A model generated the notes under the pieces. It was not told the origin of the DNA and did no database searches. It saw only the letters and a list, made by a program, of their open reading frames with translations. A DNA stretch of 64,000 nt from an uncultured bacterium (GTDB taxonomy: Bacteria; Patescibacteriota; Dojkabacteria; SC72). Where the stretch lies: NCBI GenBank assembly GCA_903906305.1, contig CAIVJR010000007.1, positions 45,809 through 109,808 of the forward strand. Direction: 5' to 3'. Positions 13,382 to 46,232 of this stretch are shown here, piece after piece (position 1 is the first letter of the stretch; every line of letters begins with the position of its first letter). Both the position numbers and the translations under genes were made by a program.

Positions 13382-13846
13382 ATGAAAGAAAAAATACTCC
13401 TAACCAAGGAAAAGAAAGAAGCCTTAGAATTAGAATTAAAGAATTTAATTGAAGTTAAGAAACCTGAAATCTCTGCAGCTTTGGCATTAGCAAGGCAAAA
13501 TGATTTGAGTGATGACACGGATGATCTAAGCATTATGTTGGTAGAGAAGGAATCTTTTGAGGATAGGATCAAGGAATTAAAAGAACTTTTGGCAAATTCC
13601 AAGGTTATAGATAAAAAATTCTGTACTCCAAACAAAGTAAGTGTTGGTTCTGAAATCAAAGTTGAATTCAATGGAAAGAAACAGGATTTAAAACTTGTAA
13701 CTACATTGGAATCAGATCCACTAAAAGGATATATATCTGAAGGTTCTCCATTAGGTAAAGCTTTGTTAAAAGCTCAAGTAGGGAAGACCGTTGATTTCAA
13801 GGTAAAGGGAAGAAAATTTGAATACAAGATCTTAGAGATTTGCTAA
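13382..13846 (+). CDS. GreA/GreB-family paralogue (second Gre factor)
   Basis: It has a 154-aa coiled-coil N-terminus plus a C-terminal FKBP-like domain (GSPLGKALLKAQVGKTV). The coiled-coil tip (NDLSDDTDD) diverges from canonical DxxE. Confidence 0.6.
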   Translation: MKEKILLTKEKKEALELELKNLIEVKKPEISAALALARQNDLSDDTDDLSIMLVEKESFEDRIKELKELLANSKVIDKKFCTPNKVSVGSEIKVEFNGKKQDLKLVTTLESDPLKGYISEGSPLGKALLKAQVGKTVDFKVKGRKFEYKILEIC

Positions 13847-15115
13847 ATCTTCAATCTTAACTCTTTCTTGCTTCATTGTATCTCTGTCTCTAACTGTTAC
13901 AGTATTATCTTCTAGTGTTTGATAATCCACAGTTATACAGTATGGTGTACCAATTTCATCTTGGTATCGATATCTTTTCCCGATATTGCCTCTCGCATCC
14001 CATACAACCTTCTTGGTATCTGTAAGCTTCTCAAATATTTCTCTAGCCTTGTTAACAATTTCTTCTTTGTTAGAAACCAATGGGAATACCGCGGCTTTGT
14101 ATGCAGCTATCTCAGGATTAATCTTTAATACTGTCCTAATCTCACCATTCTCTAAAGTTTCTTCCTCATATGAGTCTAAAAGTAAGAACAAGAATGTTCT
14201 GTCCACACCACCTGAAGTTTCAACAATGTTTGGCATGTATTTTTCACCTGTTTGAGGATCGGTATATGACAAATCTTTCCCAGAGAATTTACTATGCTGT
14301 GTTAGATCGTAATCACCTCTCCAGTGTATACCTTCATTTTCAGCCCATCCCCATGGTGCTAGATATTCAACATCAAAAGCTTTCTTAGCATAGAAGACTA
14401 ATTTTTCTTTTGGATGTTCAAAGAATCTCAGATTCTCATGCTTTCGGTATAGCTTCTTGTAGAAGTTCATTCTTTCTTCCTTCCAATATTCAAATGATTT
14501 TTCCATATCGTTTGGATGAACGAAATACTGCATATCCCATTGCTCAAATTCTCTAGTTCTGAATGTAAACTTGTTCGGAGTGATTTCATTTCTAAATGCT
14601 TTTCCAATTTGTGCAATACCAAAAGGAATTTGTTGTCTTGTAGAATCAACAACATTTTTAAAATCAAGATATATGGTTTGGCAGGCTTCACCTCTGAGGT
14701 ATGCTGTTACTTTTTCTCCTTCAATTACACCGACTTCGGTTTTAAAAAGCATATTGTATGTTCTTGGTTCTGTGAATTCTGTTCCACCACACTTTGGACA
14801 TTTGCCATCTATATCTTCAGGTCTAAATCTTGCATGACATTTTTTACATTCAACAGCTTCATCCCCAAAACCTTTGATATGACCAGATGCCTCCCATACT
14901 TTTGGATGGGTGATAATGGTTCCATCAATACCAACAACATTCTCTCGTTTGTCTACCATGTTCTTCCACCAATATCTTTTGAGATTGTTCTTCATCTCTA
15001 CACCTACAGGACCATAATCATAGAATCCTCCTATACCACCATATATTTCAGAATTTTGAAATATAATACCTCTTCTTTTACTGAGGGATGTGACTTTTTG
15101 TAGAAGATCTTCCAT
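13832..15115 (-). CDS. glyQS: glycine--tRNA ligase (dimeric class II type)
   Basis: IFQNSEIYGGIGGFYDYGPVGVE and the class II motifs are present, as is the anticodon-binding region. Confidence 0.9.
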   Translation of the reverse strand: MEDLLQKVTSLSKRRGIIFQNSEIYGGIGGFYDYGPVGVEMKNNLKRYWWKNMVDKRENVVGIDGTIITHPKVWEASGHIKGFGDEAVECKKCHARFRPEDIDGKCPKCGGTEFTEPRTYNMLFKTEVGVIEGEKVTAYLRGEACQTIYLDFKNVVDSTRQQIPFGIAQIGKAFRNEITPNKFTFRTREFEQWDMQYFVHPNDMEKSFEYWKEERMNFYKKLYRKHENLRFFEHPKEKLVFYAKKAFDVEYLAPWGWAENEGIHWRGDYDLTQHSKFSGKDLSYTDPQTGEKYMPNIVETSGGVDRTFLFLLLDSYEEETLENGEIRTVLKINPEIAAYKAAVFPLVSNKEEIVNKAREIFEKLTDTKKVVWDARGNIGKRYRYQDEIGTPYCITVDYQTLEDNTVTVRDRDTMKQERVKIEDLANL

Positions 15116-15223
15116 AGGTCGAAAGATGAAATTAATATTCCTGATTATATCTTAAAATCTTGTGTAAGGACAGATTATTTATATGATATAATCCTACTAT
15201 CTTAAATTATATGATTCGTTCCC

Positions 15224-16768
15224 ATGGAGGATACACAAAGGAGTGACATGCTCGGACAAAGACAAGTAAGATTAGAGAAAATCGAAGCACTCAAGAAGTT
15301 AGGTGTGGAGATATATCCTGCGAAGTCATATAAACAATTTCACAATGGAGAAATATTAAACAATTTTGAAAAATATGAAGGGCAAGAAGTCTGTCTTGCG
15401 GGTAGAGTAGTAGCCTGGAGAGAGCATGGACAACTTTTGTTTGGAAATATAATGGATCAAACTGGAACCATCCAGATCATGGTTAGAGAAAGTGAGCTTG
15501 TTGAAGACCTTGCTAAGGGATATTTGGGATTTGATAAGTTGACGCTTTTGGATTTGGCAGATTTTGTTGAAGTCTATGGAATCATCGGCAAAACTAAAAC
15601 TGGTGAAATTTCGGTTATGGTTAAAAACATAAGGTTGCTTTCTAAAGCATTAAGACCAATTCCACGAAAATTGGAAAACAAAGAGCAGATATTTAGAAGA
15701 AGATATTTGGATTTGGTAGTAGATAGGGAAAGTTTTGAGATGTTTAAGAGGAAAGCTCAATTCTGGCAGGTACAGAGAGATCTTCTAAGAAGCGAAGGCT
15801 TTATAGAAGTTGAAGTTCCTGTAATGGAAGCTATAACTGGTGGAGCAGATGCTAGGCCATTTGTTACACATCATAATGCTTTAAATCAGGATTTCTTTTT
15901 AAGAATTTCTACGGAATTGTATCAAAAGAGGTTAATAGGTGGTGGATATGAAAAGATATATACATTAGGTCCTAACTTCAGAAATGAAGGTATGGATGAT
16001 GAACATCTTCCAGAATTCCAAGATATCGAATGGTATTGGGCATATGCCAATTACAGAGATAATATGGATTTAGTAAGAAGATTGTTCTTAGAGATTGCTA
16101 ACAAGGTATATGGTAGAACCAAGTTTACAACTAGAGGTCATACATTTGATTTAGCTGATGAATGGAAGGAATTAGACTATACAACAATAATCAAGGAAAG
16201 GTTTGATATTGATATCTTCAACGATTCAGATGAGAAGATGTTAAAGGTTATAGAGGACAACCATATTGAGATGGGTGGTGAAGTAAACAGAAATAGATTA
16301 ATTGATACGCTTTGGAAAGCTATTAGGGCTACAATATCTGGCCCTGCATTCTTAGTGAATCAACCAAAATTTGTTTCTCCTTTAGCAAAATCACATCAGG
16401 ATAATCCTGAATTAACAGAAAGATTCCAAGTAATAATTGCAGGGAGTGAATTGGGTAATGGATATTCTGAAATTAATGATCCTCAAGATCAATTAGATAG
16501 ATTCTTGGAACAACAGGCTTTAAGAGAGAGTGGGGATGATGAGGCTCAGATGTTAGATATTGATTTTGTTGAGATGTTGGAATATGGTATGCCACCTACG
16601 AGTGGTTATGGTCAAAGTGAGAGAATATTCTGGTTCTTAGAAGATGTTTCTGGTAGAGAAGGTATATTCTTCCCACCTATGAGGATAGAAGTAGAGAATA
16701 CGACTAAAGAAATATACAAGGACAAAGTCAAATTCAAGGAAACGGTTAAGAAAGAGGAGAAGAAATAA
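15224..16768 (+). CDS. lysS: lysine--tRNA ligase (class II)
   Basis: An N-terminal OB fold is followed by the class II core (FIEVEVPVM, GPNFRNEGMDDEHLPEF, GGSE). Confidence 0.9.
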   Translation: MEDTQRSDMLGQRQVRLEKIEALKKLGVEIYPAKSYKQFHNGEILNNFEKYEGQEVCLAGRVVAWREHGQLLFGNIMDQTGTIQIMVRESELVEDLAKGYLGFDKLTLLDLADFVEVYGIIGKTKTGEISVMVKNIRLLSKALRPIPRKLENKEQIFRRRYLDLVVDRESFEMFKRKAQFWQVQRDLLRSEGFIEVEVPVMEAITGGADARPFVTHHNALNQDFFLRISTELYQKRLIGGGYEKIYTLGPNFRNEGMDDEHLPEFQDIEWYWAYANYRDNMDLVRRLFLEIANKVYGRTKFTTRGHTFDLADEWKELDYTTIIKERFDIDIFNDSDEKMLKVIEDNHIEMGGEVNRNRLIDTLWKAIRATISGPAFLVNQPKFVSPLAKSHQDNPELTERFQVIIAGSELGNGYSEINDPQDQLDRFLEQQALRESGDDEAQMLDIDFVEMLEYGMPPTSGYGQSERIFWFLEDVSGREGIFFPPMRIEVENTTKEIYKDKVKFKETVKKEEKK

Positions 16769-16855: not shown

Positions 16856-16932
16856 TGGCTCCTCGTGCGTGGGTTCGAACCCGCGACCTAGTGATTACAA
16901 TCACCCGCTCTAACCAACTGAGCTAACGAGGA
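16856..16932 (-). tRNA. tRNA, anticodon region reads GUA (Tyr); class I, irregular anticodon arm and T-stem
   Basis: On the minus strand the acceptor stem is UCCUCGU/ACGAGGA and the D-arm is UAGCUCAGUUGGUUAGAGC. The T-loop is UUCGAAC. The 3' end carries G then CCA. The anticodon arm is only 16 nt (GGUGA-UUGUAA-UCACU). The T-stem needs a bulged A to pair. Confidence 0.65.
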
Positions 16933-36012: not shown

Positions 36013-36423
36013 ATGGATGATTGTATCTTCTGTAAAATTATAAAAGGAGAGATTCCTTGTTACAAACTCTACGAGAATGATTCTGTTATTGCTTGGTTAG
36101 ATATTCAACCTTTAAGTAAAGGTCATCTCTTAGTTGTTCCTAAAGCACATTACCAAGATATTCATGAGGCATCAGAAGAAACCTTATGCGAGGTTATGAA
36201 GGTAGCTAGAATAATGGCGAACAAGGTTAAAACCGAATTACATCCAGAAGCAATATTGATTAATCAGAATAACGGTGAGAAGGCAGGTCAAACTATTATG
36301 CATTACCATATGCATATCAAACCAATATATGAGGATACCCATTGTAACACTGAAGAAGGACATAGAACGGGTTTTCCAGACGAAGAGATGAAGAAGATAG
36401 AGGAGATCCTAAAAGTAAACTAA
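36013..36423 (+). CDS. HIT-family (histidine triad) nucleotide hydrolase
   Basis: The HYHMHI triad, the N-terminal CIFCKI and GHLLVVPK are present. Confidence 0.8.
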   Translation: MDDCIFCKIIKGEIPCYKLYENDSVIAWLDIQPLSKGHLLVVPKAHYQDIHEASEETLCEVMKVARIMANKVKTELHPEAILINQNNGEKAGQTIMHYHMHIKPIYEDTHCNTEEGHRTGFPDEEMKKIEEILKVN

Positions 36424-36797
36424 ACAGATTGATATAGTTTTTGTAACTTCTTATCAAATGTTACTAACTCAGACTTATTCTCTTTTGCTAAGAAAAGTAT
36501 TACAGAATCAATAGCTGTAAATGAATGGGATAAATTTTTAGTAAATTCGATATACCTTTTTAAGTTTGATTCATTTAGACTTGGTGTCTCATCTGCCATT
36601 TTTAGACTTGTCTTAACACTAAAATCACGAAATTCTTTATTCCTTGAAAAGCTCGTAAGCTCTGCAAATACTACTGTGGGAACAGTAATTATAGCGGATC
36701 CAAATTCAGTTGCTATTTCGTTTGCTGCGAAATAATTAGAATCTTTATTGTTTAAGAAAGCACTTAGGAAACTTGTATCAAGCAGATATGTCTTCAT
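36420..36797 (-). CDS. PIN-domain toxin (VapC-like)
   Basis: It has the N-terminal YLLDTSFL acidic motif and is 125 aa long. It overlaps the upstream partner by 4 nt. Confidence 0.65.
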   Translation of the reverse strand: MKTYLLDTSFLSAFLNNKDSNYFAANEIATEFGSAIITVPTVVFAELTSFSRNKEFRDFSVKTSLKMADETPSLNESNLKRYIEFTKNLSHSFTAIDSVILFLAKENKSELVTFDKKLQKLYQSV

Positions 36798-37075
36798 ATC
36801 TGTTCTCTCTGTCGCCTTATGAACCCAACACTATCTCTGTATGTTGGGGCAGACATAGAGTATTTCCCAAATCTTTCTATAAAGGAGGGGCGCTTCTGTA
36901 TTGATTTTGTAACTTGTTTCTTTTTTACTGTGTAATCCTTTAAACTAGTCAAAACCGCAATAGGTTCTTTATTTTTTTTGTATCCTAGATATACAATTCC
37001 TCCATCTTTAACAAAAGACAAGGCTTCAGAAGGTTTTTCGTAAAATTCAGTTGTATTGTAAGTTCGTTTTTTCAT
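36794..37075 (-). CDS. Phd/YefM-like antitoxin
   Basis: The 93-aa protein has N-terminal TTEFYEKPSEAL...EPIAVLTSLKDY (YefM fold pattern). It lies upstream of the PIN gene and overlaps it. Confidence 0.5.
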   Translation of the reverse strand: MKKRTYNTTEFYEKPSEALSFVKDGGIVYLGYKKNKEPIAVLTSLKDYTVKKKQVTKSIQKRPSFIERFGKYSMSAPTYRDSVGFIRRQREQI

Positions 37076-38066: not shown

Positions 38067-38834
38067 TTGGGGCTTAATGAAATGACAGAAACAAAGAAAA
38101 GTGAGACCAAAGAGGTGGTCATAAACCTCGATACATTCGCAATTCCTTTAGCAATAATAATCGCAGGTGTAATAATTGCACTTGGTATATTTTTTGCAAA
38201 CAGGAATGCAGATACTAAAGGTTCTGCAAATACAAATGATACGACTAATACAGATACCACAGGGGATACCTACAAATCAGCTACTACTAAGATAGCTGAT
38301 GGTGCAGTGTTAGGAAATAGGGATAAGGCAAAGGTTGCGATAGTTATGTACAGCGACTATCAGTGTCCATACTGTCAGACTTTTGAGAAGGATACTTTGT
38401 CTGATATTGTAAGTAACTATGTTGATACCGATCAGGCTATATTTGTATTTAGAAACTACCCATTGAGCTTCCACGGTGATATTACATATACCTCTGCATA
38501 TGCAGGAGAGTGTGTGCTTGACCAATTAGGAAGTGAGAAGTTGAGAGAATTCCATAGCAAAACATATTTGGCTAAAGATATGACAGCAGTCAATACCGCG
38601 GCTCAGGAATTAGGTGTTGATATGACTAAGTACAATGCTTGTGTAACCAATCAAACATTCAAGGGTAGAGTAGACGCAGACTTTACAGCAGGACAAGCTG
38701 CAGGAGTCACAGGGACCCCAGGATTTGTTGTTGGTACATTGGATGGTGATGGCAATGTAACAGGTAAGCTCATCGAAGGAGCATATCCATTCGCATCATT
38801 CAAAGCAGTAATTGATGAGATGCTAGCTAAGTAA
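38067..38834 (+). CDS. DsbA-family thiol:disulfide oxidoreductase, membrane-anchored
   Basis: An N-terminal TM helix and the CPYC active site are present within a thioredoxin fold. Confidence 0.75.
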   Translation: MGLNEMTETKKSETKEVVINLDTFAIPLAIIIAGVIIALGIFFANRNADTKGSANTNDTTNTDTTGDTYKSATTKIADGAVLGNRDKAKVAIVMYSDYQCPYCQTFEKDTLSDIVSNYVDTDQAIFVFRNYPLSFHGDITYTSAYAGECVLDQLGSEKLREFHSKTYLAKDMTAVNTAAQELGVDMTKYNACVTNQTFKGRVDADFTAGQAAGVTGTPGFVVGTLDGDGNVTGKLIEGAYPFASFKAVIDEMLAK

Positions 38835-38843
38835 AACCCCCTT

Positions 38844-38869
38844 CCAGGACTGACCTAGGTCAGTCCTGG
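38844..38869. repeat. 26-nt perfect palindrome (left flank of the RAYT gene)
   Basis: The sequence CCAGGACTGACCTAGGTCAGTCCTGG is its own reverse complement. Confidence 0.7.
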
Positions 38870-38910
38870 GGTTCATTCAGATTTAATAACCCAGTGCTAC
38901 AATTGGGTTT

Positions 38911-39387
38911 ATGAATAAACTCCAGGTTATCAAACTGTATCGAAGTGAAAACTTTTACCATATATATAACCGAGGCAATAATAAGGCCTTGATTTCTCGT
39001 ACCAATAAAGATTACTTAGCCTTAAGAGGTTTGATGTATAGATTTTCCAAAGAGAATAAATTGTTAGTTGTAAGCTACTGCTTCATGCCAAACCATTTCC
39101 ATATGATTATTAAGCTTAGAGACGATTTAGAGGGTATATCCAAATTCATGCGGGCATACATGACCTCATATGTTATGTACTTCAACAGAAAATACCGAAG
39201 AGTGGGTCATTTATTTCAAGGTCCATTTCAGGCGAGGAGAATTGAAGACGATAGGGATTTGTATAAGGTTATAGAATACATAAAACGAAACCCAATTGAA
39301 GCAGGATTAATCTCGTCTAAAACAGGCCAGAAATATCGATGGTTATTTGTAAAAAGGACATTCGATAGGAGGGGAGGACTGACCTAG
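38911..39387 (+). CDS. REP-associated tyrosine transposase (RAYT, IS200/IS605 TnpA-like HUH Y1 enzyme)
   Basis: YHIYNRGNNKALISRTNKDY matches the RAYT N-terminus. The HUH motif is HFHMII, and the catalytic Tyr region is YIKRNPIEAGLI. Confidence 0.75.
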   Translation: MNKLQVIKLYRSENFYHIYNRGNNKALISRTNKDYLALRGLMYRFSKENKLLVVSYCFMPNHFHMIIKLRDDLEGISKFMRAYMTSYVMYFNRKYRRVGHLFQGPFQARRIEDDRDLYKVIEYIKRNPIEAGLISSKTGQKYRWLFVKRTFDRRGGLT

Positions 39388-39398
39388 GTCAGTCCTCC
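39373..39398. repeat. 26-nt perfect palindrome (right flank of the RAYT gene)
   Basis: The sequence GGAGGACTGACCTAGGTCAGTCCTCC has the same 22-nt core as the left copy. Confidence 0.7.
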
Positions 39399-39406
39399 TT
39401 AGGTCG

Positions 39407-40552
39407 TCATTTCTTTTTTCCTTTGTTCCAAGCTTCTAACTTCATCCTTACAAATGCTCCTACCGCTGTGGACATTAGGGTTACTGAGTAGAAGAATCCG
39501 ACGAATGGTACTAGTCCAACCAATACGGAGATTAATCGTCCGATTGCGAGGGACTTAAATGGTCTGTAACCTTCTGATTTAAGCAAGTGTAATATCTCTT
39601 GTCCAAATGCAGTTTCCACCCATAGCTGACCGAAGACGGTTAGGAACAGGATTAATCCGAATACAAAGAATGCTAATGGAAGACCTACTAATGAAATGCT
39701 TAACAAAAGTAAGGCTACTGGTGCAACTACTAAAATTCCAAATCCAATCAGCAAACTGAAGATAAAGTCTTTTGGACTTCCTGTGACTTTTGCCATAATC
39801 TTACCCGTTTTAACAGGTGCAGAAGCGATCATTACATACCCGACTAGACTTAAACTACAGAATGAAAATAGAGCTCCAAATAGTTTGTCTGTCCAGTTCG
39901 TGGTATATACCTTTGGAGTGTTCATATTAACCTCTTTATCAAAGATTACGCCTTGATCTTTTGCAATATTCTCAATCCTTGCAGAGTCATATATGTTTCC
40001 AGTTACTTTTTCTTCTTGTAAACTATATTTGCTTCCTAAAACAATTAAATCACCTTTGATTAATGTATCGATTGTTCCATCGCTTGTAATGAATCTTGCA
40101 TCATCACCAACTGAACCAGTTAGACTTGTTCTCATAGCTATATTTACATAGTCCATTTCAACATTACCACTGAAGGTTACGGTTGAACCAATAGTATATG
40201 CATTAGCTTTGATTATGCCTTGTACAGAAATGTCATTACCAACTGCAATGAGATTTCCATATGTATTTCCAGTGAATGTGATATTTGAACCTACTACATA
40301 TACATCTCCAGTTACTGTTCCAGTGATTTTTACATCTGTAGCAGCAACAAAGAGATCTCCTTGGACTAAACCATTGATCTCGGTGTAACTGTTAGTTATG
40401 TAAAGATCATCCGCGACGGTTTGATCTTGGTTTAAGGTGTAATCCTTAAAATGAAATTCTGCAGCATTAGCTGGTTTTGCAGCTACGATACCGATGAGTA
40501 CTGTTAGCAAAGGAATTGCTAGTATACTTAAGAGTCTTTTTGAAATGGACAT
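39407..40552 (-). CDS. secreted beta-helix-repeat protein with C-terminal TM helices (bactofilin-like repeats?)
   Basis: A signal peptide is followed by repeated (V/I)xGxVxGD(V/L) units, then 3-4 TM helices. Confidence 0.4.
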   Translation of the reverse strand: MSISKRLLSILAIPLLTVLIGIVAAKPANAAEFHFKDYTLNQDQTVADDLYITNSYTEINGLVQGDLFVAATDVKITGTVTGDVYVVGSNITFTGNTYGNLIAVGNDISVQGIIKANAYTIGSTVTFSGNVEMDYVNIAMRTSLTGSVGDDARFITSDGTIDTLIKGDLIVLGSKYSLQEEKVTGNIYDSARIENIAKDQGVIFDKEVNMNTPKVYTTNWTDKLFGALFSFCSLSLVGYVMIASAPVKTGKIMAKVTGSPKDFIFSLLIGFGILVVAPVALLLLSISLVGLPLAFFVFGLILFLTVFGQLWVETAFGQEILHLLKSEGYRPFKSLAIGRLISVLVGLVPFVGFFYSVTLMSTAVGAFVRMKLEAWNKGKKK

Positions 40553-46228: not shown

Positions 46229-46232
46229 AGAT

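Follow-up and report, generated by a model that had tools for sequence, protein, structure and literature searches.

The REP-associated tyrosine transposases (RAYT or TnpAREP enzymes; REP, repetitive extragenic palindrome) serve as the textbook case of domestication among bacterial transposases and have been studied in genomes where REP families reach hundreds of copies, although we know of no established benefit that they bring to their hosts. A 64-kb stretch of contig CAIVJR010000007.1 from an uncultured member of the Dojkabacteria (WS6), which we refer to as the window (positions in it are given in window coordinates), encodes a small Y1 transposase of the HUH (histidine–hydrophobic–histidine) type between two copies of a perfect palindrome. 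Is this a mobile insertion sequence (IS), a transposase gene that happens to lie beside a host signal, or a domesticated enzyme accompanied by its own hairpins? We consider it likely that the locus is a minimal unit of the REPtron/TIRtron kind, that is, a domesticated single-copy class 2 Y1 gene flanked by its cognate 22-nt hairpin-forming palindrome. The unit adds a well-preserved example to an already described sort of domesticated transposase, in a phylum that has received little study, and is unusual mainly in the small size of its palindrome family. Its atypical traits, a perfect palindrome lacking the GTAG tetranucleotide and a family of only a few doublets, have precedents.

The unit lies between a dsbA-like gene, encoding a DsbA/thioredoxin-like protein, and a convergent gene encoding a 381-aa DUF8173 protein, and measures 551 bp including the gene and both hairpins (Table 1). 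The left 22-mer begins 11 nt past the stop codon of the dsbA-like gene (38832-38834) and the right 22-mer ends 10 nt from the stop codon of the DUF8173 gene (39407-39409), with the TAG stop codon of the transposase itself (39385-39387) at the exact centre of the right palindrome. An earlier note on this DNA was thus accurate in placing the stop codon of the gene inside the right palindrome and that of the convergent gene next to it. The same note described identical 26-nt palindromes on the two sides. Each 26-nt version is indeed a perfect palindrome, but their outer two base pairs are not the same (CC..GG in the left copy and GG..CC in the right), and only the 22-nt core is identical between the copies. 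The two 26-mers are the longest perfect palindromes of the window, with a G+C content of 62% against 34.7% for the window as a whole. When folded as single-stranded DNA, either strand of either copy gives an 11-bp stem with a 4-nt loop (around -12 kcal/mol, z around -4). No further copy of AGGACTGACCTAGGTCAGTCCT is present in the 64-kb window even when up to three mismatches are permitted (chance expectation 0.00), only one Y1 gene is found there and no tnpB gene adjoins it. A promoter-like site, matching 9 of 12 consensus positions in addition to the TG of an extended -10 box, is found 8 nt past the left palindrome and ends 7 nt ahead of the ATG, suggesting that the transposase mRNA may be leaderless or nearly so.

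The motifs of the 158-aa protein place it among the RAYT enzymes. Two classes of relevance here are distinguished by Quentin et al. (2018, PMC6006769): class 1, exemplified by IS200, combines DH[VI]H with Y---Q, and class 2, comprising TnpAREP and its relatives, combines (N/D)H-u-H with Y---NP. The window protein carries FYHIYNRGNNKALISRTNKDY, NHFHMII and EYIKRNPIEAGLI, bearing out the length, HUH motif and catalytic region given in the earlier note. The HUH motif is H62-F-H64, preceded by N61, and the catalytic tyrosine is Y123 within YIKRNP. Twelve positions are invariant across 41 homologues (Y16, H17, R21, G22, N61, H62, H64, N92, G99, Y123, N127 and P128), so that the HUH motif reads N-H-F-H and the tyrosine motif Y---NP. 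Judged by NHFH, (F/W)Q and YIKRNP, the protein belongs to class 2.

Profile and structure comparisons agree with this assignment. The protein matches the Pfam family Y1_Tnp (PF01797) at 38.8 bits against a gathering score of 23, and its sole NCBIfam match is REP_Tyr_transpos (NF047646, 56.6 bits), with no match to transpos_IS200 at E <= 0.1. All 41 homologues match REP_Tyr_transpos and just two match the IS200 model, both weakly. A sequence search of the PDB returned a single match, E. coli TnpAREP (4ER8, E 0.19). An AlphaFold (AF2) model of the protein (mean predicted local distance difference test score, pLDDT, 91.7) comprises the core plus a short tail only, in contrast to longer relatives of 190-260 aa that have extensions beyond the core. 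The best fold match of this model in the PDB is again 4ER8 (chain A), with a template modelling (TM) score of 0.72 over the full length (167 columns, E 1.5e-7), compared with a TM score of around 0.53 over a core of about 117 columns for the IS608, ISDra2 and IS200 TnpA proteins. The proposal of the earlier note that the protein is a RAYT rather than an IS200-type enzyme therefore stands on the class 2 motifs, the REP_Tyr_transpos match in the absence of an IS200 match, the nearest fold and, as described below, a single copy at a fixed locus.

To locate related units we used exact scans with the central 20-mer of the palindrome, covering 185,579 species representatives plus metagenomes. Among the species representatives the 20-mer occurs at six loci in three Patescibacteria/WS6 genomes and at one Bacillus locus (L006). 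The metagenomes yielded 22 loci, one of them an unrelated GC-rich match (L013). L006 and L013 have unrelated contexts and were set aside as chance matches, the number expected in 596 Gb being about 0.5. The neighbouring genes have homologues that carry the label Dojkabacteria/WS6. One locus, L003 (CAZSUV010000001.1), is labelled Candidatus Saccharibacteria, but its genes are 88-94% identical to those of the window and group with WS6/Dojkabacteria, making the label doubtful.

The order dsbA-palindrome-transposase-palindrome-DUF8173 is retained in 10 distinct lineages in which transposase identity falls as low as 67%. Every orthologous open reading frame (ORF) is intact, encodes 158 aa and terminates in GLT*. 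The median pairwise omega (dN/dS, at a dS of around 0.5-2) is 0.065 for the transposase, compared with 0.097 for dsbA and 0.065 for DUF8173. A neighbour-like omega at one fixed locus is the pattern of a RAYT and not that of an insertion sequence, RAYTs having been described as low or single copy, vertically inherited and evolving in the manner of housekeeping genes (Bertels et al. 2017, PMC5581495).

The palindromes are conserved along with the gene. The left 22-mer is invariant (22/22) in all 10 distinct orthologous units and both 22-mers are invariant in the eight distinct units of the window clade, where the adjacent bases are scrambled and the invariance of the right copy extends to synonymous codon positions. 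In the clade of L005 and L007, the right copy has acquired two to three mismatches and lost its folding; the transposase is nonetheless under purifying selection there (omega 0.07).

The window transposase gene is itself a mosaic. Informative sites divide 17:20 within the unit and 167:32 in the flanks (Fisher p 2.7e-6), the flanks grouping with L003 and L008, and a tract at approximately 38920-39290 grouping with L017 and L021. Exchange of the unit as a cassette at its palindromes was considered and rejected, as the switch points (approximately 38901-38920 and 39290-39325) fall within the gene, making it the product of ordinary homologous recombination between two lineages.

Further clues to the history of the unit come from sites that lack it. 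In more distant Dojkabacteria, whose DUF8173 proteins are 40-59% identical, dsbA and DUF8173 converge directly, 43-65 nt apart, with no transposase between them. Empty-site alleles of the kind that the earlier note proposed to look for in relatives are thus present, at L047, L048 and L049. The spacers of L048 and L049 contain ordinary bidirectional terminators. That of L047 contains a solo related hairpin, GGGGTAGACCAAGGTCTGCCCC, which agrees with the window palindrome in 14 of its 22 positions (-7.2 kcal/mol, z -3.3) and stands 12 nt past the dsbA stop codon and 9 nt ahead of the DUF8173 stop codon, the corresponding distances in the window being 11 and 10 nt. On this alignment of positions, the occupied site reads as the empty site with its hairpin duplicated and the gene between the two copies. 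Two histories may account for this: either the gene entered beside a pre-existing hairpin, or the solo hairpin of L047 was left behind by recombination between flanking copies.

Table 1 Features of the transposase unit and of the unoccupied glyS-lysS site, in window coordinates
Feature	Position	Strand	Details
Transposase ORF	38911..39387	+	158 aa; class 2 Y1 (HUH), RAYT/TnpAREP/TIRYT type
Left 22-nt perfect palindrome AGGACTGACCTAGGTCAGTCCT	38846..38867	.	Within 26-nt palindrome 38844-38869
Right 22-nt perfect palindrome AGGACTGACCTAGGTCAGTCCT	39375..39396	.	Within 26-nt palindrome 39373-39398
Promoter-like site TTCAGA-16 nt-(TG)TACAAT	38876..38903	+	9/12 consensus positions plus TG
Unoccupied class B site, 108-nt spacer	15116..15223	.	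Between divergent glyS 15115..13835 (-) and lysS 15224..16729 (+)

The palindrome is not confined to the transposase unit. When up to four mismatches are allowed, every palindrome copy in 29 loci is a member of a pair, and four pair spacings recur: 528-529 nt for the transposase unit, 222-223 nt for a pair located between glyS and lysS, which are divergent, 185 nt and 77 nt, with interiors of 55-507 nt. Single contigs carry the transposase unit together with the glyS-lysS pair. Outside the window clade, each pair comprises one perfect copy and a partner with two to four mismatches that no longer folds. The pairs that lack a gene bracket unrelated non-coding DNA, their interiors sharing nothing with the element or with each other, and blastn and tblastx searches on these interiors gave no match. 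That they might be decayed transposase genes was rejected after a six-frame hmmsearch with the family profile returned nothing in the class B, C and D interiors, against 227 bits for the positive control. Nor does the interior of class B, the glyS-lysS pair, appear to be a structured RNA, having no Rfam match and an RNAalifold covariation term of +1.75 with three compensated pairs across four lineages. A whole pair is able to fold as one long hairpin through its two palindromes, and it is this pairing of the palindromes with each other that accounts for the low folding energy of class B.

The glyS-lysS site provides a second comparison of occupied and unoccupied alleles. The window has the unoccupied form (Table 1), in which mirror-image extended -10 boxes for glyS and lysS (GATTATATCA and TGATATAATC) are separated by only about 32 nt. 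Four related lineages have a glyS-lysS spacer of 356 nt that holds a palindrome pair, 222 nt apart, around some 200 nt of non-coding DNA; this palindrome-bracketed module is located exactly between the two -10 boxes, replacing the sequence upstream of both. That the sequence shared between the two forms stops at these outward-facing boxes makes the class B module a discrete indel of approximately 250-270 bp. Comparison of the sites allows neither a clean target duplication nor a precise junction to be defined. At glyS every occupied lineage has the same distance to the window (88-89% nucleotide identity), such that gain and loss are not separable. Just past lysS lies a tRNA-like gene (16856-16932, - strand) that ARAGORN reports as tRNA-??? 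with a 2-nt anticodon call and that scores only 38.9 bits with Rfam; its anticodon loop may be unusual, or it may contain an intron.

Homologous transposases, around 45-52% identical to the window protein, are found at further fixed sites among housekeeping genes: between tsf and frr (P0013 and P0014), beside an M50 peptidase gene (P0028) and between a DUF4349 gene and fmt (P0018). P0014 is a paralogue, encoded in a WS6 genome that also holds an orthologue of the window unit (L005), the two proteins being about 49% identical. Each homologue has, just upstream, its own type of hairpin-like sequence, after which come a TTCA(T)TCAGA-like stretch containing a TTCAGA -35-like box and then a -10 box, and at the opposite end is a related, usually degenerate, copy of the hairpin. 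Folding support is clear for P0014 (upstream copy, z -3.6) and for P0018 (downstream copy, z -3.3). That homologues at three other loci have their own, different hairpin-like repeats implies that the repeat travels with the gene.

Two of these sites have neighbours of some interest. At 3514-6280 in L037-L039 and L041, P0028 is followed by a cassette resembling a diversity-generating retroelement (a 323-aa gene, bAvd and a reverse transcriptase gene), and related hairpin-like 22-mers at 2943 and 6292 bracket the whole 3.3-kb block. In L040 the P0028 transposase gene is followed instead by AntA/ANT and DNA polymerase A genes, showing that the downstream region is variable. In L050, the intergenic region upstream of P0018 contains an RNase P-like motif, GAGGAAAGTCCGG, recognised by eye only. 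The window itself contains a class A RNase P RNA gene (2515-2817, + strand, 153.5 bits).

How does the window unit compare with known systems? The E. coli REPtron pairs TnpAREP (a RAYT, the product of yafM; 4ER8) with flanking REP sequences and bacterial interspersed mosaic elements (BIMEs) (Nunvar 2010; Ton-Hoang 2012; Messing 2012, PMC3479197). The two share a Y1/HUH core with Y---NP, 4ER8 being the best structural match, a single-copy gene that is vertically inherited and evolves like a housekeeping gene, and an arrangement in which one hairpin stands on both sides of the gene with further extragenic copies present as doublets. They differ in that the window unit has no 5' GT[AG]G guide, its protein mostly does not conserve the residues that contact GTAG, and its hairpin is a perfect 22-26-nt palindrome with no bulges. 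The doublet spacers are also long (55-507 nt), the protein scores under the NCBIfam equivalog cutoff and the host belongs to the Patescibacteria, a group not mentioned in the survey of Quentin et al. (2018, PMC6006769). Copy number differs too, with about 2-3 doublets per genome in place of tens to hundreds of REPs, so that the expectation in the earlier note of a REP family of classical size was not borne out. The 16-mers flanking RAYT genes have a mean frequency of 41 (Bertels et al. 2017, PMC5581495), above that of the window palindrome. Like REPINs (paired REP elements; Bertels and Rainey 2011, PMC3116915), the copies are always paired and a pair may fold into one long hairpin. Unlike REPINs, they form only 3-4 pairs and not a population, with spacers that are far longer and have no sequence in common; usually one partner of a pair is degenerate, and there is no evidence of recent replication.

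The missing GTAG and the small family both have precedents. Subclasses 2.6 and 3 of Quentin et al. (2018, PMC6006769) have atypical hairpins without GTAG, and in TIRtrons a RAYT-like gene stands between inverted repeats that are not GTAG-containing REPs (Di Nocera et al. 2013, PMC3733652). Some of these terminal inverted repeats (TIRs) are wholly self-complementary and some overlap the 3' end of the gene; they are often low-copy, and many genomes have only a small TIR family or none (Di Nocera et al. 2013, PMC3733652). Here too a RAYT-like gene is flanked by non-GTAG repeats that are both direct and inverted, and since a perfect palindrome present on both sides is also a terminal inverted repeat, the window unit fits the TIRtron description well. 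The TIRtron genes (TIRYTs) largely correspond to subclass 2.1 of Quentin et al. (2018, PMC6006769), with which the window protein shares the combination of NH[YF]H and FQ (NHFH and FQ in the window). It differs from that subclass in consisting of the core only, its 158 aa lacking the C-terminal helix-turn-helix (HTH)-like domain (subclass median 238 aa), and neither flanking copy matches the GGGGWSAS motif common to many TIRs.

Several observations weigh against reading the locus as a domesticated REPtron/TIRtron-like unit. The match to REP_Tyr_transpos falls short of the equivalog cutoff of that model (80 bits), and the residues through which E. coli TnpAREP contacts GTAG are mostly not conserved, F-Q...A-R...E aligning with W94-Q95...E100-H101...R104. 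The hairpin copies, whose 5' flanks are TTCC, GGGG, GGAA and CAGA, lack the canonical GT[AG]G foot of a REP. With approximately 4-6 copies (about 2-3 pairs) per genome, of which whole-collection scans count 2-3 as exact copies of the 20-mer, the family is far smaller than any classical REP family. All pairs stand at orthologous positions across the sampled lineages, giving no sign of recent transposition, and the presence or absence of the class B pair could reflect deletion rather than mobility. Decay of the right hairpin in L005 and L007, where the gene remains constrained, indicates that whatever function is selected does not need two intact hairpins. Finally, support for the lineage-specific hairpins of the homologues is uneven, being weak for P0013 and unconvincing for P0028.

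Three other explanations of the locus have to be weighed against this reading. That the unit is an autonomous insertion sequence of the IS200/IS605 type, capable of peel-and-paste transposition, with the gene-less pairs as its non-autonomous derivatives (PATE- or MITE-like, MITEs being miniature transposable elements with inverted repeats), seems to us very improbable. The window unit does share with the class 1.1 TnpA proteins of IS200, IS608 and ISDra2 the HUH/Y1 fold, a small protein and, presumably, the chemistry of single-strand cleavage beside a hairpin. It is compact, has subterminal hairpins at both ends and is missing from the same site in more distant relatives, and the gene-less pairs act as discrete indels. 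The earlier note took the same hairpins on both sides as evidence for a REP-RAYT-REP arrangement and against IS200/IS605. The arrangement is indeed REPtron-like, but identical ends are in themselves a weak argument, as the left- and right-end hairpins of IS608 are also near-identical; copy number, synteny and motifs are better ones. There is one copy per window and contig, at the same locus in 10 of 10 lineages with dS of up to around 2 and under purifying selection, no tnpB adjoins it, and the protein has Y---NP in place of Y---Q and NHFH in place of DH[VI]H, with TnpAREP as its best structural match. Paralogues in the same genome would be expected to be near-identical copies, yet P0014 and L005 are far from this. 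Deletion derivatives should retain shared sequence, yet the gene-less interiors resemble neither the element nor each other. The palindrome is also absent from 2.9 million viral contigs (0 matches), which likewise speaks against a phage origin. For the earlier note, a palindrome restricted to its two sites and a gene at varying loci in relatives would have suggested a mobile IS200-like element; in fact the palindrome occurs at further loci and relatives carry the gene at the same locus.

It is also improbable, if less so, that the palindrome is a host signal acting in duplex DNA or RNA (an operator, a promoter insulator or a transcript 3'-end hairpin) beside which the Y1 gene lies incidentally or happened to land. 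A perfect dyad conserved even in its loop is typical of operators, and strong extended -10 boxes (TGTGATATAAT), those of glyS, lysS and one further gene, lie 7-30 nt from copies of classes B and D. The -10 box of the transposase starts 30 nt past the left copy, the same offset as that of the lysS -10 box in L002, and between dsbA and DUF8173 an ancestral bidirectional terminator has given way to the hairpins, L047 having a solo hairpin there. The right copy, however, falls between two convergent stop codons, a position without a promoter, the pair spacings (529, 222, 185 and 77 nt) show no helical phasing, and Y1 homologues at three other loci are flanked by different hairpin-like repeats of their own. 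Two narrower versions of this idea were rejected. As a promoter, the palindrome offers only a 4/6 match to the -35 box (CTGACC) at the wrong distance from the nearby -10 boxes. As a canonical intrinsic terminator, it lacks a U-tract (T-run) behind either copy, and a terminator scan returned nothing at either; the suggestion in the earlier note that the left copy could terminate dsbA transcription is therefore plausible from its position but gains nothing from the scan. The third explanation, that the Y1 protein has been co-opted for a host function independent of hairpins and that the palindromes are slowly decaying relics of a former REP/REPIN population, we regard as unlikely. It would account for the one perfect and one unfolded copy of pairs outside the window clade, for the constraint on the L005/L007 gene despite its decayed right hairpin and for the orthology of all sites with no detectable recent movement. 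Against it, one copy per pair is invariant at all 22 positions across lineages whose synonymous sites are near saturation, and both copies are invariant in the window clade, synonymous positions included. Relics would not be kept in this way.

The history of the unit is visible from the comparisons. In more distant relatives the dsbA/DUF8173 convergent spacer holds only a bidirectional terminator or a single related hairpin. Since the arrival of the unit the gene has been inherited at that one locus, where purifying selection constrains it no less than its neighbours, and one or both hairpins have been kept letter-perfect. Further hairpin pairs stand at other fixed intergenic sites, their presence differing between lineages. 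The mechanism is a matter of proposal. By analogy with E. coli TnpAREP acting on REP, and with IS608 and ISDra2, the protein would recognise the hairpin extruded from single-stranded DNA, and the adjacent strand would be cut and rejoined through Y123, with a metal ion held by H62 and H64. Such activity could create or maintain the hairpin doublets, as has been proposed for REPINs. Two further roles are suggested by position. The left hairpin abuts the -35 box of the transposase promoter, so that binding there could autoregulate expression, and the hairpins stand where the dsbA/DUF8173 terminator was, so that they probably also serve as transcript 3'-end structures.

A more speculative proposal, and one that we think unlikely as it stands, is that the enzyme and hairpin together form a host device operating at a few intergenic sites, such as the divergent promoters of glyS and lysS and the convergent ends of dsbA and DUF8173. 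Its possible roles include hairpin-directed control of transcription or of single-stranded DNA processing during replication. Strong purifying selection acts on the enzyme and on one letter-perfect hairpin per site, yet there are only about three doublets, and this argues that the function is not the upkeep of a large REP population. Were the proposal true, the unit would be a minimal natural system for testing what RAYTs do for their hosts. It is already reduced to a core-only enzyme of 158 aa and a perfect 22-nt palindrome present in a few pairs, and nature provides empty as well as occupied alleles of both the gene-bearing unit and a gene-less pair. It thus offers a compact means of testing hairpin recognition without a GTAG guide, and could reveal whether housekeeping genes close by are served by the hairpins. 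In annotation, genes of this type should not be counted as active insertion sequences in candidate phyla radiation genomes.

Some other features of the window can be noted briefly. Neither the transposase nor its neighbours has a PADLOC match, and membership of a defence system was discounted. Two genes upstream of the unit, at 36420-37075 on the - strand, are overlapping small genes encoding 93 aa and then 125 aa; the 125-aa product resembles a PIN-domain (VapC-type) toxin, and the equivalent pair in L047 has a Pfam PIN match. The Rfam DUF3800-IX RNA motif is found twice on the - strand (54375-54446 and 55151-55222), 776 nt apart, with scores of 58.6 and 56.3 bits against a gathering score of 36.8, and these two copies explain the 71-nt direct repeat (D3) that was detected in a repeat scan. 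Finally, a 300-nt direct repeat with 73% identity is present 2.4 kb apart in a polysaccharide/glycosyltransferase region (46231-46530 and 48625-48924) and probably represents paralogous genes.

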